DNA of 64,000 nucleotides, from the sequence record MZ779063.1, one strand, 5' to 3'. The translations under genes and the position numbers were made by a program. The notes under the pieces are model-generated. The model had not been told where the DNA came from and did not search any database. It saw only the letters and a list, made by a program, of their open reading frames with translations. Numbering within the stretch: the stretch's first letter is position 1; the number at the start of each line of letters is the position of its first letter. Source of the DNA: Staphylococcus phage vB_SauM-UFV_DC4. Of the stretch, positions 56,400 through 60,980 are shown piece after piece.

Positions 56400-56678
56400 A
56401 TGACAGAATTTGAAAATGAAATTAAAGTATCAAAAGAGGAGAAGAAGATTAAAAGATTTATTGATCAAGGTATTGATAATTTATCTGATACTGTAGGAGA
56501 GAATATTGAAGGTATTCCATTATCTTTAACTGATTATTTTCCTAAAATAAAGAAATTAATTATTAAATTAATTGATCGAGAAGAAAGTGATGAAATTAAA
56601 ATGACAAATGAATTAGGTGAAGTATTTAAATTTAATAGAACTTCACACGATATTTATTTAACATCAACTAAATTTTAA
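56400..56678 (+). CDS. hypothetical protein
   Basis: RBS AAAGGAGAAA; 92 aa. Confidence 0.55.
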   Translation: MTEFENEIKVSKEEKKIKRFIDQGIDNLSDTVGENIEGIPLSLTDYFPKIKKLIIKLIDREESDEIKMTNELGEVFKFNRTSHDIYLTSTKF

Positions 56679-56724
56679 TGAAAACTTTCTATGATCCAAC
56701 AATAAAATTAAAGGTGTGGTATGT

Positions 56725-57348
56725 ATGATTAAAGTCAATGAGCTATTAACAGAAGTTAAGGAAATAAAAACAAATGACAGTTATACGAAATTAATAAATG
56801 AGTATAGAGATATTATTAATGAAGAATATATATCTTATAAACCGTTAAAAGATTATTACAATTTTATTATATATTATCTAGAGAAATCTAGAAATCAAGC
56901 ATTGGAATCTAACAACTTTAATGAATCCAATTTAAATATCAAATTATTAATAGAAGATCTAATGATATTAAAAGATATTGTTAAATCTAATATTTTTGAT
57001 ACTAAAGAAGTAATCAGATCTACTGGGTTTAAATTAACAAATGGTAGTACATTTGATAGAGTTATCAAATACATTAAAGATAAACTAGATGAATTAATTA
57101 TAGAAATAAATTCAAATAATTATAAATATCAAAATATCTATTTCTATCTACCTGAACTAAATAATCTATTGCATAATACAATTCATATAGAACGTGTTTT
57201 AGATAAATATAAGAATAATGTAGATATTATTAATATAAATAAATATAATTTATTTGAAATGATGCCTTGTAATGATATTATGGATAAAGATGAATTTTAT
57301 ATAATGGTTAATCATTTATATGATTTAGGTGTTTTAGAAAAAGCGTAA
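56725..57348 (+). CDS. hypothetical protein
   Basis: RBS AAAGGTGTGG (track start 56716). Confidence 0.55.
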   Translation: MIKVNELLTEVKEIKTNDSYTKLINEYRDIINEEYISYKPLKDYYNFIIYYLEKSRNQALESNNFNESNLNIKLLIEDLMILKDIVKSNIFDTKEVIRSTGFKLTNGSTFDRVIKYIKDKLDELIIEINSNNYKYQNIYFYLPELNNLLHNTIHIERVLDKYKNNVDIININKYNLFEMMPCNDIMDKDEFYIMVNHLYDLGVLEKA

Positions 57349-57408
57349 CATGTAATAAAATAAGTATATATTATAATTATGAAGAAAGATAAAGTATTAA
57401 TATCTTTC
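57338..57408 (+). promoter_or_regulatory. repeated promoter module 2: AAAAGCGTAACATGTAATAAAATAAGTATATATTATAATTATGAAGAAAGA plus hairpin GAAAGAT/ATCTTTC
   Basis: Overlaps the 3' end (LEKA) of the upstream gene. Confidence 0.55.
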
Positions 57409-57435: not shown

Positions 57436-57606
57436 ATGAAAAAGAATTTATTATTAAAATCAGCAGTGGGATTTGGGTTAGGTATTGTATTAGGTGTAGT
57501 AAGTAATAAAATTGATGAAATGGTTATGCAGAAGGAAATGGAAAAGCAAATCTTTAAAAGAGCTTCAGAAATAACTTTTGAACATCCATTCAATAATCTA
57601 AAATAA
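57436..57606 (+). CDS. small membrane peptide (56 aa); paralog of 58134..58238
   Basis: RBS ATGGAGGAATTTAAAATG, identical to the one at 58865; shared GFGLGIV core. Confidence 0.5.
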   Translation: MKKNLLLKSAVGFGLGIVLGVVSNKIDEMVMQKEMEKQIFKRASEITFEHPFNNLK

Positions 57607-57687
57607 AGGAGGAAAGAGGATAATTGTTTTAAAGACCTAATGGACAAGGATCAAGTTCATTAGGTCTATAATTTTCTATGATCCAAA
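57605..57687 (+). repeat. conserved ~85-nt structured non-coding element, copy 1: AAGGAGGAAAGAGGATAATTG, hairpin AGACCTAATGGAC/GTTCATTAGGTCT, then TTTTCTATGATCCA
   Basis: About 90% identical to 58236-58322; contains nested inverted repeats GGATCA/TGATCC. Confidence 0.55.
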
Positions 57688-57709: not shown

Positions 57710-58024
57710 ATGAATAACAAAACTAAATTAGCAGAATTAAGAAAAGAATTAAAAATCGTATATTCGGATATACAATTGAGCAAAACAAGTACTATAGAAG
57801 AAAGACTTCACAAGAAAAAGGAAAGACTAATTAAAGAAATTAATGAACTATTAGAAAAAGATCAAAATGTTTTCGATAGAGAAAAACATATAGCAAAAGT
57901 TAAAGATCAGAATAACGATAACATTCACAAGGGATCAGATGAATTTTCTAAGGCAGGTAGACTCCATAGAAAATATCAGAAGCAAGATAAACACAACATT
58001 TTCAATAATCCAGTACAAGATTAA
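57710..58024 (+). CDS. hypothetical protein; paralog of 58536..58841
   Basis: Shared C-terminus ...SDEFSKAGRLHRKYQ / ...SDYAKAGRLHQSFQ. Confidence 0.6.
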   Translation: MNNKTKLAELRKELKIVYSDIQLSKTSTIEERLHKKKERLIKEINELLEKDQNVFDREKHIAKVKDQNNDNIHKGSDEFSKAGRLHRKYQKQDKHNIFNNPVQD

Positions 58025-58037
58025 AAAGTTGAATTTG

Positions 58038-58107
58038 AAAAAGCGTAACGTAAGATATTTTAATTATATATTATAATAATGAAGAAAGAGATTATCATTA
58101 ACTCTTT
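58038..58107 (+). promoter_or_regulatory. repeated promoter module 3: AAAAGCGTAACGTAAGATATTTTAATTATATATTATAATAATGAAGAAAGAG plus hairpin GAAAGAG/CTCTTTC
   Basis: Third copy of the module. Confidence 0.55.
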
Positions 58108-58133: not shown

Positions 58134-58238
58134 ATGAAAAACTTAGTATTGAAATTAGTAGCAGGATTTGGATTAGGAATTGTGATGGCAGTTGTTTTAG
58201 ACAAGATTGAAGAAATGACGTTCTCTAATTTAAAATAA
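58134..58238 (+). CDS. small membrane peptide (34 aa); not in the track
   Basis: RBS AAAAGGAGAAA; MKNLVLKLVAGFGLGIVMAVVLDKIEEMTFSNLK, paralog of 57436..57606. Confidence 0.4.
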   Translation: MKNLVLKLVAGFGLGIVMAVVLDKIEEMTFSNLK

Positions 58239-58322
58239 AGGAGGAAAGAGGATAATTGATTTAAAGACCTAATGAACATAATGGATCAAGTTCATTAGGT
58301 CTATAATTTTCTATGATCCAAA
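58236..58322 (+). repeat. conserved ~85-nt structured non-coding element, copy 2
   Basis: AAGGAGGAAAGAGGATAATTGATTTAAAGACCTAATGAACATAATGGATCAAGTTCATTAGGTCTATAATTTTCTATGATCCAA. Confidence 0.55.
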
Positions 58323-58353
58323 CTAAAACTAAAAATAAAAAGGAGAAATTAAA

Positions 58354-58530
58354 ATGTTAGAATTAAATGGAATTGAATTTGTAAATGAAAAGGAAATTAA
58401 AGAAGAGGAATTATTATTTAATTATTCAGATGAAGCAAGATATCCATCTGAACAGGCTTATAGAGAAGTAGATTTAATCATTGAGAGCTTCGACAATACA
58501 GCTTTCGGATTAAGAAAATGGGGAGTGTAA
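58354..58530 (+). CDS. small hypothetical protein (58 aa); not in the track
   Basis: RBS AAAGGAGAAATTAAAATG; MLELNGIEFVNEKEIKEEELLFNYSDEARYPSEQAYREVDLIIESFDNTAFGLRKWGV. Confidence 0.4.
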   Translation: MLELNGIEFVNEKEIKEEELLFNYSDEARYPSEQAYREVDLIIESFDNTAFGLRKWGV

Positions 58531-58535
58531 TTAAA

Positions 58536-58841
58536 ATGGTCAGAGAAGAAAAAATCAAACAAATGAAACAAGAATTACAAGCAATTTTAGACAAAGAAAT
58601 TAGGTTTAATGGTAAACCAATTTCAAATAAACAATTTGAGAGAAAATTAGAACTAATGAAACAAATAGAAAAGTTAAAATTTGACATTAGATCAGAAAGA
58701 TATCTGAGAAATGTCAAAAAGAATAAAATCACTGAGTTTAAGGGTAAAAGTGATTATGCGAAAGCAGGAAGACTACATCAATCTTTCCAAAGTAAAGAAG
58801 AGCATAAAATATGGAAAGACGATTTATTAGTAATTCAATAA
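58536..58841 (+). CDS. hypothetical protein; paralog of 57710..58024
   Basis: RBS GGGGAG 10 nt upstream (track start 58518 lies inside the upstream ORF). Confidence 0.55.
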   Translation: MVREEKIKQMKQELQAILDKEIRFNGKPISNKQFERKLELMKQIEKLKFDIRSERYLRNVKKNKITEFKGKSDYAKAGRLHQSFQSKEEHKIWKDDLLVIQ

Positions 58842-59255: not shown

Positions 59256-59288
59256 AAATTAATTAAATTATAAGGAGTTGAATTGGAT

Positions 59289-59396
59289 ATGTTATTAGAA
59301 AACTTCATTACAATTATCGTGTTACTTGGCTTAATGAAATTTACAGGTTGTTTCAAATTTATGAAAGAAATCTGGTCTAACAAAGGTAACAAATAG
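59289..59396 (+). CDS. small peptide (35 aa); not in the track
   Basis: Leader AAGGAGTTGAATTGGATATG (conserved initiation motif); MLLENFITIIVLLGLMKFTGCFKFMKEIWSNKGNK. Confidence 0.4.
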   Translation: MLLENFITIIVLLGLMKFTGCFKFMKEIWSNKGNK

Positions 59397-59474
59397 CAAT
59401 AAAAGAGTGGATTATTTTCTATGATCCACTCTACATATTTAAATTAAAAAAAAAAACGAAAAGAGGAAATTAAA

Positions 59475-59981
59475 ATGAAAAAATTATTAATGACATTAGC
59501 ATCAATCGCTTTAATCGCAGTTATCGGAGCAGCAGGGATATTTGGTTATAGTAGTTTTAAAAGCTTAACAGTCAATAAAGAAGATAGTAAGACTGAAGAA
59601 GTATCTAAAAAGAAAGAAGACAAAAAAGAAAAGAAAGAACAAGAAGAATCAGATAATGTAGAAGTAAATCAACAACAAGATCAAACTCAAGAAGTAAATA
59701 ATAATGAACGACAAAATCAAACTACAGAAGATAATAATACAAATGTACAACAAAATCAACAACAAGAACCAGTAGTTGAAGAGAAAACTCAAGTAACAGA
59801 TAATGAAGGTAATAATATAGATGATATGGATTCAGAAGAATTTATTTCTAAATATACGGAAGGAATGGATGAAGAAGAAGCTCAAACAGTAAAAGACATG
59901 GCTGAAGAAGATTCAGGATATGAAGATTTCTTACGTGGACAAGTAGAAGCTAGACAAAATGGTCAAGGCGGAAATTACTAA
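59475..59981 (+). CDS. membrane-anchored Q/N/E-rich protein, paralog family A1
   Basis: MKKLLMTLASIALIAVIGAAGIFGYSSFKSL followed by a disordered acidic Q/N-rich region. Confidence 0.65.
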   Translation: MKKLLMTLASIALIAVIGAAGIFGYSSFKSLTVNKEDSKTEEVSKKKEDKKEKKEQEESDNVEVNQQQDQTQEVNNNERQNQTTEDNNTNVQQNQQQEPVVEEKTQVTDNEGNNIDDMDSEEFISKYTEGMDEEEAQTVKDMAEEDSGYEDFLRGQVEARQNGQGGNY

Positions 59982-60004
59982 TAAGAAGAAAAGAGTGAAA
60001 TGAA

Positions 60005-60472
60005 ATGAAAAAAATCTTAAGTATTTTAACAGCGATAGCTTTAATCACAGTTATCGGAGCAGCAGGAGTATTCGGATATAGTAGTTTTAAAGAATTAAAT
60101 AATAGTAAAGATAGTCATAAAGTTGAAACAAGTAAAAAACAAAAAGAATTAGATGATAAAAATAACACTCAACAACAAGAACAAAATACATCAAAAGAAA
60201 ACAACAATATCCAACAACAATCAAATGAAGATAGCCTAACAGAAAATATGGATGAAGAATATAAAAAACAACAGGAAATGTATGAAAGGCAATCAAAAGA
60301 TGAAGCTCCAGAACCGGATTCTATAATTGGCAACCCACCAAAAAATTATGAAACTCCAGAAAAAGATAAAATAACTATAAGTGAGTTAAGAGAAGTTTTA
60401 GGCGATGATATTGATGAAAGTAAAATTGATGAAGCAAAAGCGTCTGGCGAATATATTAATGATGAAGAATAA
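60005..60472 (+). CDS. membrane-anchored Q/N/E-rich protein, paralog family A2
   Basis: MKKILSILTAIALITVIGAAGVFGYSSFKEL. Confidence 0.65.
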   Translation: MKKILSILTAIALITVIGAAGVFGYSSFKELNNSKDSHKVETSKKQKELDDKNNTQQQEQNTSKENNNIQQQSNEDSLTENMDEEYKKQQEMYERQSKDEAPEPDSIIGNPPKNYETPEKDKITISELREVLGDDIDESKIDEAKASGEYINDEE

Positions 60473-60503
60473 AAAATAAATAAAAAGAATAGAGGAAAAT
60501 AAA

Positions 60504-60980
60504 ATGAAAAAATTATTAGTATCATTATCAATCTTAGCAGTAATTGTAGTATTAGTAGCGGCAGGTGTGTTTGGATATTCAAAATATAAAGAAGTAGAAA
60601 TGAAACAACAGAATTTAGAAACACAATTAGAAGAAAAAAATTCCAATGAGCAAACTAATGAAAACGATCAACAACAAGAACAAGCAAATACAAATGAATC
60701 TCAAAATCAAGAAAATAGTTCAACAAAAAACAATAACGACAATAAACAAAAAGTATCTAGAGACAATGTATTTGACTATGCTTTAGCTGCAGTAAATGAA
60801 GTAGGTGACGCTGATTTAATGAAATTCCAAGAACCTTCTTACAGTGATGGTGTATGGACAATTGACACTAATAATAAATCTGGTTCAGGATCTAATACTA
60901 TAAAAGTATACGATGATGGCTGGGTACAGATATATGATGGATCTGGTGAAATAGCTCATGAAACAAAAATAGAACTATAA
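60504..60980 (+). CDS. membrane-anchored protein, paralog family A3, with a globular C-terminal domain
   Basis: MKKLLVSLSILAVIVVLVAAGVFGYSKYKEV. Confidence 0.65.
   Translation: MKKLLVSLSILAVIVVLVAAGVFGYSKYKEVEMKQQNLETQLEEKNSNEQTNENDQQQEQANTNESQNQENSSTKNNNDNKQKVSRDNVFDYALAAVNEVGDADLMKFQEPSYSDGVWTIDTNNKSGSGSNTIKVYDDGWVQIYDGSGEIAHETKIEL

Follow-up and report, generated by a model that had tools for sequence, protein, structure and literature searches.

In the genome of Staphylococcus phage vB_SauM-UFV_DC4 (sequence record MZ779063.1), a non-coding element of about 85 nucleotides (nt) occurs twice, at positions 57605-57687 and 58236-58322 of the 64,000-nt stretch of DNA analysed here, hereafter the window. 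Our analysis suggests, tentatively and at somewhat less than an even chance, that both copies serve as a 3'-end or intercistronic module within a duplicated early-gene cassette, in which a terminator-like hairpin is joined to a clade-wide signal at transcription-unit boundaries. The second component is the 12-mer TTTCTATGATCC, hereafter motif M. The hairpin appears to be ordinary in kind, in an unusual phage, and it is the attached 12-mer that appears to be new; M is apparently undescribed, as the literature searched made no mention of it and the full-text matches were unrelated primer sequences.

This region shares 99.6% identity with Staphylococcus jumbo phage S6 (LC680885), and its homologues are confined to S6 and eight Staphylococcus jumbo phages (PALS_2, MarsHill, Madawaska, Machias, PB50, AH12, LY01, and SA1); a plasmid collection searched with the region gave zero matches. 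S6 and its relatives belong to the AR9/PBS1-type phages, in which a virion and a non-virion multisubunit RNA polymerase are both phage-encoded. The window has a G+C content of 24%, and the annotated genes surrounding the element all lie on the + strand. For motif counts the complete genomes of S6 and of Listeria phage LPJP1 were assembled, and for structure comparison 12 copies of the element from 8 phages were aligned.

The hairpin and its comparative support

The two copies match at 81 of 87 aligned positions (93%), in line with the approximately 90% identity given by an initial annotation of this DNA, and they lie, as described there, between the genes of a duplicated unit. Each contains the 13-bp hairpin that had been noted, formed in copy 1 by AGACCTAATGGAC (57633-57645) and GTTCATTAGGTCT (57655-57667) and in copy 2 by AGACCTAATGAAC (58265-58277) and GTTCATTAGGTCT (58290-58302), and starting 26 nt after the TAA stop codon of the upstream small open reading frame (ORF). 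The ~100-nt regions fold at -24.8 (z = -4.9) and -24.0 kcal/mol (z = -3.8), and 0 of 200 shuffled sequences were equally stable, bearing out a stable fold beyond chance for DNA this rich in A and T. The G/A difference in the 5' arm turns a G.U pair into an A-U pair, so that the proposed neutrality of this change for the structure also holds.

Comparison among the relatives points in the same direction. Over the 12 copies, 98.7% of the hairpin cells are paired, with compensatory changes at 3 hairpin pairs and G.U or U.G variants at 5 pairs, which would be A.C mismatches on the opposite strand; register-shifted controls for the hairpin all dropped to 15-42% paired. The covariation and the sense-only G.U pairs indicate that the hairpin is genuine and works in the sense orientation, presumably at the RNA level, in agreement with the annotation of a structured non-coding element. 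The inverted repeat GGATCA...TGATCC, in which the hairpin had been described as nested, exists, although covariation is absent from it and the few positions that depart are unpaired. A covariance model for the entire element, run on S6, LPJP1, and AR9 along the lines originally suggested, recovered the two copies already known in each S6 genome but nothing in LPJP1 or AR9; it follows that the full element is confined to S6-like phages, while M alone reaches further. Rfam 15 gave zero matches in the 64-kb window at the gathering threshold, and none relevant on the element or cluster at E<=1. An integron attC-like site was rejected for the element as the core motifs are absent. In the S6 reference (L133 33401-33503) both copies share the hairpin loop GGACAAGG, whereas copy 2 of the window (58230-58335) has GAACATAATGG, a difference between near-identical strains that suggests gene conversion or a recent change.

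The function first proposed for this structure was that of a leader or attenuator which sequesters the Shine-Dalgarno (SD) tract at its start, or in which a leader peptide is sensed, or else that of a discrete small RNA; we now consider this highly improbable. Stable predicted folds do pair the SD tract with the 3' tail, and a mini-ORF of 7-8 codons (MDKDQVH / MNIMDQVH), whose copies differ by 3 nt in length, spans the hairpin. Against sequestration, however, the outer helix predicted between the SD tract and the 3' tail is 81% paired across copies, each departure being an uncompensated break, and the loop/tail helix of GGATCA with TGATCC is, as noted, without covariation. The downstream ribosome-binding site, whose possible occlusion had been raised, is free in the folds: for copy 2 the minimum free energy structure leaves it unpaired, and for copy 1 it pairs only weakly, with sequence further downstream. 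No SD sequence stands at a workable distance from the mini-ORF, and its ATG and TAG are by-products of the palindromic arms. A leader dedicated to the downstream paralogues is further at odds with the S6-like loci fetched, where the 1-3 full copies per locus precede differently sized genes (genes compared by size alone and not by sequence relatedness), and with the finding that the most conserved part of the element is a genome-wide motif. As for a free-standing small RNA gene, the element has no Rfam match and no apparent promoter of its own: the interval from the small ORF to the element is without a match to the early promoter, and the element lies inside the transcripts predicted from the early promoters P3 and P4 (Table 1), with copy 1 at 224 nt and copy 2 at 156 nt past the predicted start. 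What stands of the earlier interpretation is thus a structured, cis-acting, sense-strand element; the sequestered SD, the dedicated leader, and the small RNA are not supported.

Motif M in S6-like and related phages

Each copy was initially annotated as ending with TTTTCTATGATCCA, and each does, but this string is found four times in the window (56684, 57671, 58306, and 59414), and at 56684-56697 and 59414-59427 it follows different upstream sequence. The latter site falls in a different hairpin (59404-59432; -16.8 kcal/mol, z = -5.8), which is kept in all relatives and lies between ORF 59283-59396 and the gene at 59475. M is invariant (100%) at all positions of the cluster in 8 relatives, even with flanks that are ~70% identical. 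Exact M occurs 10 times in the S6 genome against 0.10 copies expected and 9 times in the LPJP1 genome against 0.087 expected, and it is the top over-represented 12-mer shared by the two; one-mismatch variants are only ~2-fold enriched in these genomes. When IMG/VR was scanned with M plus an A-run, 14 loci were recovered, of which 12 lie in contigs that are 134-262 kb long and have 30-43% G+C. A virion-polymerase beta homologue, with 31-33% identity to its counterparts in S6, LPJP1, and PBS1, is encoded on one of these 12 M-bearing contigs, and on another a portal protein matching AR9-like phages only. Scanning with the bare 14-mer gave, among the matches listed, almost exclusively chance or coding matches (e.g. 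FFYDPK), and the motif with an 8-T prefix gave chance matches only. Without a single letter changed, M extends from phages of Staphylococcus and Listeria to relatives in gut metagenomes with ~30% protein identity.

M mostly adjoins terminator hairpins and runs of T or A, in one orientation or the other, and its surroundings fall into several recurrent arrangements. A hairpin and T-run precede M at LPJP1 4626, 52850, and 104045, of which the two copies in the window are a weaker version. The order M, A-run, hairpin, T-run is seen at S6 132435, at LPJP1 14744 and 216396, in the L149/L153 family, and at L060. At L145, L148, L151, and L156 the order is hairpin, T-run, M, GAAAAAAG, hairpin, placing M between two terminators that face it, and at window position 59416 and at S6 115128 M lies within a hairpin. 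By manual tally, M is co-oriented with local genes at 15 of the 19 S6 and LPJP1 sites, and ~13 of the ~17 intergenic sites lie <=100 nt downstream of a co-oriented stop codon. In the L149/L153 family the tandem genes on either side of M both run antisense to it (terminator-T6-C-revM-60 nt-SD), and the exact M of AR9 sits at a junction of the same form, immediately behind the stop codon of g153 (TAA-TTTTC-revM) and ahead of the early g154 unit. The hairpin at S6 115128 (L131 15128-15139, minus strand) is of the 59416 type and stands 22 nt upstream of tRNA-Asn on the opposite strand; read on the tRNA-Asn strand, its loop shows the complement of M, which may have an antisense partner.

We considered whether these sites could be terminator-promoter junctions, at which the hairpin ends an early unit and M is an unrecognised minor-class promoter for one of the phage polymerases that restarts transcription of the next gene, as in the promoter-stem-loop cassettes flanking shuffled genes of T4-type phages. 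In the window, M does follow hairpins directly and precedes start codons by 25-47 nt, the order at L152 is M-A7-SD-ATG and that at L148 terminator-M-hairpin-gene, and at S6 44464 and LPJP1 167190 M is directed from a divergent early promoter toward a gene. M also holds TATG, the phiKZ late-promoter core cited in PMC5312081. However, at no fewer than six sites (at least S6 132435, LPJP1 4626, 14744, 104045, and 216396, and L145) M is aimed into a convergent gene or a bidirectional terminator, and its antisense placement in the L149/L153 family also speaks against a promoter. None of 159 AR9 start-site entries holds M within -50..+1, despite the one exact M in AR9, and the one-mismatch variant TTTCTAAGATCC in AR9 lies at -57..-46 from the mapped g020 start and hence not at a start. 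Moreover, ~10 copies of M per genome are too few for a general late promoter. Together these observations make a promoter unlikely. An AR9-type late promoter in particular was rejected, as M is at odds with the consensus AACA-N6-TA/G (PMC5312081, PMC5449584): no AACA stands at the required position, and the four bases preceding M vary (TAAT, AAAC, TTAT, and others). A host sigma-A promoter was likewise rejected: boxes of the form TATGAT and TATAAT occur, but neither a -35 box nor a TG extension accompanies them, such a promoter would not account for the conserved TTTC and CC, and AR9-type transcription is independent of the host polymerase. Two readings at the RNA level were also set aside. 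Pairing of M with the 3' end of 16S rRNA (UGAUCC with GGAUCA) would span 6-7 nt only and misfits the antisense and 3'-end copies, and the resemblance to an rRNA boxA-like antitermination site is weak; we know of no use of Nus factors by phage polymerases.

M could also be a DNA site that serves a process other than transcription, such as replication, nicking, topoisomerase action, packaging, or recombination, in which case the hairpin would be an ordinary co-duplicated terminator and M would adjoin terminators only because it is confined to transcription-free gaps. Its recognition as a strict, all-or-none 12-mer, its occurrence in both orientations, its position between facing terminators at L145 and L148, and the location of the cluster just downstream of the DNA primase gene would all be accommodated. 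The co-orientation with local genes at 15 of 19 sites would not, and the ~10 scattered sites per genome are irregularly spaced and form no iteron-like array; no candidate protein for M was identified. We regard a role of this kind as very unlikely.

A proposed boundary signal and its precedents

We prefer the reading in which the element marks the end of a transcription unit, which fits the most M sites. Transcription would start at an AR9-type virion-polymerase promoter (57365-57381 or 58065-58081), and the transcript would pass a 5' stem-loop and then the small membrane-protein ORF. The sense-strand RNA hairpin, followed by AUAAUUUUCU, would act as an intrinsic-terminator-like stop or attenuator and would also protect the short early transcript at its 3' end. 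M, which comes next, would be a separate, clade-wide signal at the borders of transcription units, probably recognised in DNA form, either by the phage polymerase itself or by a conserved factor of the phage, and would reinforce termination or insulate the next unit. Read-through or later transcription would then serve the downstream genes. That the hairpin terminates transcription, and that M is recognised by a factor or polymerase, we infer from these arrangements. In its wider form, in which M is an unrecognised sequence-specific boundary signal of the AR9/PBS1-type phages, either a terminator or insulator read by their non-canonical multisubunit polymerases or the site of a conserved DNA-binding roadblock factor, the proposal is possible but doubtful. 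If it is true, the duplicated element in the window is a composite form of the boundary signal, built of an RNA hairpin and M.

Several observations weigh against this proposal. The hairpin is atypical for an intrinsic terminator, with a loop of 9-12 nt and an interrupted U tract, and a consensus terminator scan left it uncalled. At 56686, M stands without any hairpin. M occurs in both orientations relative to the adjoining terminator, and a simple polar terminator signal at the RNA level therefore does not fit. At S6 44464 and LPJP1 167190, M lies between divergent early promoters with no incoming co-oriented gene. Exact M is also found inside coding sequence, sense or antisense, at S6 165551, 196465, and 246107 and at LPJP1 109097 and 134544, and these copies are unlikely to be due to chance because only ~0.1 copies are expected per genome in total. 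The single exact M of AR9 indicates that the signal is not common to the whole group, and the literature searched yielded no transcriptome for any S6-like phage.

The remaining component of the element is the SD-like purine tract with which each copy starts. It was initially described as strong and followed by no ORF, and this is what we found: it overlaps the upstream TAA stop codon, and AAAGGAGG is followed by no usable ORF, only by TTG-N-stop. Every aligned copy has (A)GGAG near a TAA triplet and then a conserved GAAARRGATA block; for the two copies in the window, and for these only, the triplet was confirmed to be the stop codon that ends the small ORF upstream. The tract brings to mind STAB-SD (GAAAGGAGG) of Bacillus thuringiensis cryIIIA, which stabilises mRNA without starting translation. 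By analogy, the element could be an RNA stability or processing module, in which a 30S subunit, retained on an orphan SD of the STAB-SD kind, bars RNase J1 from 5'-to-3' decay, the hairpin protects against 3' exonucleases, and M is a cleavage or protein site that separates messages. Consistent with this, the SD tract without a usable start codon is conserved beside the TAA triplet in every aligned copy, AAAGGAGG is perfectly complementary to the 3' end of 16S rRNA, and the hairpin is selected on the RNA strand. The likeness of AAAGGAGG to GAAAGGAGG is that of an orphan, near-perfect SD sequence from which translation is not started. STAB-SD, however, lies in a 5' untranslated region near the 5' end of its transcript, while the tract in the window is internal, at the distances from the predicted start given above, and overlaps a stop codon, so that a STAB-SD-like stabiliser is a possibility for which the position is wrong. 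In addition, M is found antisense, and also between facing terminators in places that are probably not transcribed, which does not suit a site at the RNA level. A module for stability or processing is thus, in our view, quite unlikely.

To return to the proposed transcription-unit boundary, we know of no account of how transcription by the two multisubunit RNA polymerases of jumbo phages, virion and non-virion, comes to an end or of how early and late units are separated. As far as we know, promoters alone have been defined for these polymerases, for AR9 and phiKZ only, and we are aware of no characterisation of termination signals of non-canonical phage polymerases. Known systems offer partial parallels. 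Like the intrinsic terminators and attenuators of Firmicute phages, the element has a stable sense-strand hairpin ~26 nt past a stop codon, a U-rich stretch, and a short promoter-proximal unit, and elsewhere in these phages M adjoins textbook terminators of hairpin and T-run. The element differs from them in its loop (9-12 nt, as against 3-8 nt), in the interruption of its U tract AUAAUUUUCU, in the fusion of the hairpin to an invariant 12-mer, and in that the polymerases are non-canonical phage enzymes. The promoter-early stem-loop (PeSL) cassettes of T4-type phages, reportedly described by Arbiol et al. in 2010, resemble the present arrangement in that early ORFs which are small, variable, and often paralogous are flanked, in a plastic region, by a repeated module of stem-loop and signal that is far better conserved than the genes between, consistent with recombination or shuffling. 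A PeSL module, however, embeds a sigma-70-type early promoter, whereas here the early promoter of the mapped type lies 240-310 nt upstream, and conservation of M across host genera at ~30% protein identity would be unexpected of recombination linkers.

Sequence-specific boundary signals are known from other polymerases, among them the vaccinia early signal U5NU, the T7 class II signal ATCTGTT, and the Pol I T-rich element with its Reb1/TTF-I roadblock. M shares with these that it is a short, strict sequence at the ends of units of a virus-packaged or specialised polymerase, and with Pol I that a T-run stands immediately before the site as the approaching polymerase meets it. There is no sequence similarity to M, and the orientation of M to the terminated transcript varies. 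An exact 12-mer that is ~100-fold enriched and adjoins terminators across host genera is a testable candidate for a termination or boundary signal, and testing it requires short oligonucleotides and already purified enzymes.

The duplicated early-gene cassette

The ~85-nt copies initially described as the duplication are part of a larger one: repeat analysis and alignment show a tandem duplicated unit of ~630-700 bp, in which the element is the best-conserved segment. Each cassette begins with AAGCGTAAC, 15 nt, and TATATATTAT-N6-G, followed by a stem-loop at the predicted start, a small membrane-protein ORF, the element, and the next gene or genes; after the small ORF, the cassette ends with the SD-like tract at the stop codon, the hairpin, TATAA, and then invariant M. 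Features are listed in Table 1. From promoter to next gene start the whole units are 66% identical. The small-ORF products are 67% identical over 27 amino acids (aa), and the 104-aa and 101-aa products of the downstream genes 57710-58024 and 58536-58841 are 35% identical over 43 aa. The identity of 93% for the element, against 66% for the unit and 35% for the downstream paralogues, therefore indicates that the element has been kept by selection or gene conversion and not by recent duplication. PHROGs and Pfam gave no informative family for ten flanking proteins. PALS_2 and PB50 have short ORFs annotated at the place equivalent to 58134-58238, a membrane-protein ORF that the annotation of S6 lacks.

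Table 1. Positions of the element's components, promoters, and neighbouring genes in the window.
Feature	Position	Strand	Remarks
Early promoter P1	56026-56042		19-bp hairpin 55948-55991 directly upstream
Early promoter P2	56331-56347	+	predicted to drive ORF 56400-56678
Motif M without hairpin	56686-56697	+	8 nt after stop of ORF 56400-56678; fold shows no structure
Upstream promoter element AAGCGTAAC	57341-57349	+	15 nt before TATATATTAT; further copies 56307-56315, 58041-58049
Early promoter P3, AR9-type (virion RNA polymerase)	57365-57381	+	TATATATTAT-N6-G, TATATATTATAATTATG; predicted start G at 57381; opens copy 1 cassette
5' stem-loop	57383-57409	+	AGAAAGATA...TATCTTTCT; begins 2 nt past predicted start; -7.6 kcal/mol
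Small membrane-protein ORF, 56 aa	57436-57606	+	annotated S6_2300; TAA stop overlaps start of copy 1
Orphan SD-like purine tract AAAGGAGGAAAGAGGA	57605-57620 (copy 1), 58237-58252 (copy 2)	+	overlaps TAA stop of upstream small ORF
13-bp hairpin, copy 1, 9-nt loop	57633-57667	+	-17.1 kcal/mol alone
Motif M, copy 1	57673-57684	+	5 nt past hairpin, 25 nt before ATG at 57710
Gene downstream of copy 1, 104 aa	57710-58024	+	no known family
Early promoter P4, AR9-type	58065-58081	+	TATATATTATAATAATG; opens copy 2 cassette
Paralogous small membrane-protein ORF, 34 aa	58134-58238	+	good SD; ends at copy 2; without S6 annotation
13-bp hairpin, copy 2, 12-nt loop	58265-58302	+	-17.3 kcal/mol alone
Motif M, copy 2	58308-58319	+	34 nt before ATG at 58354
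Genes downstream of copy 2	58354-58841	+	58-aa ORF 58354-58530, then 101-aa paralogue 58536-58841
Different hairpin GAGTGGATTAT...ATGATCCACTC	59404-59432	+	M at 59416-59427 in loop and 3' arm

Early transcription of the cassettes is suggested by their promoters. The experimentally mapped early consensus of AR9 is AAATATATATTAT-(6N)-G+1 (PMC5312081), and P3 and P4 match it exactly, G start included, whereas the element and M match neither the early nor the late consensus. There are 28 TATATATTAT-N6-G sites in the S6 genome, nearly all followed by a 5' hairpin, and MEME found the same early motif upstream of 29 MarsHill genes (bioRxiv 10.1101/2020.12.14.422802). The upstream sequence AAGCGTAAC lies 15 nt before TATATATTAT at 3 of the 4 early promoters of the cluster. 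Its counterpart in LPJP1 is AAAGCGTAA-N16-TATATATTAT, with near-identical spacing (piece L135 3063-3071), and in Table S2 of the AR9 study ACCGTATTAAAA, which resembles AAGCGTAAC, stands at a similar position in 9 of 41 mapped early promoters. It thus looks as if a CGTA-type upstream element common to AR9, S6, and LPJP1 marks a subclass of early promoters, to which the cassette promoters would belong. The tandem small membrane-protein genes g047/g048 of AR9 (L158 39420-39960) each have their own early promoter with a ACCGTATTAAA upstream element, an arrangement analogous to the cassettes in the window but without the hairpin and without M.

These repeats show that the plastic early regions of S6-like phages are built of modules of promoter, small ORF, and hairpin. 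The 19-bp hairpin at 55948-55991 is followed by ATTTTCTTTTTTTT and is annotated as a terminator in MarsHill; its stem holds GGATAATGATCA...TGGTCATTATCC, reminiscent of the GATC-containing loop of the element. Further downstream, at 59450-60980, lie three tandem paralogous genes (59475-59981, 60005-60472, and 60504-60980), each with an N-terminal membrane anchor and a low-complexity Q/N/E-rich stretch; the opening 132 nt of the three genes make up a direct-repeat family with 67-77% identity.

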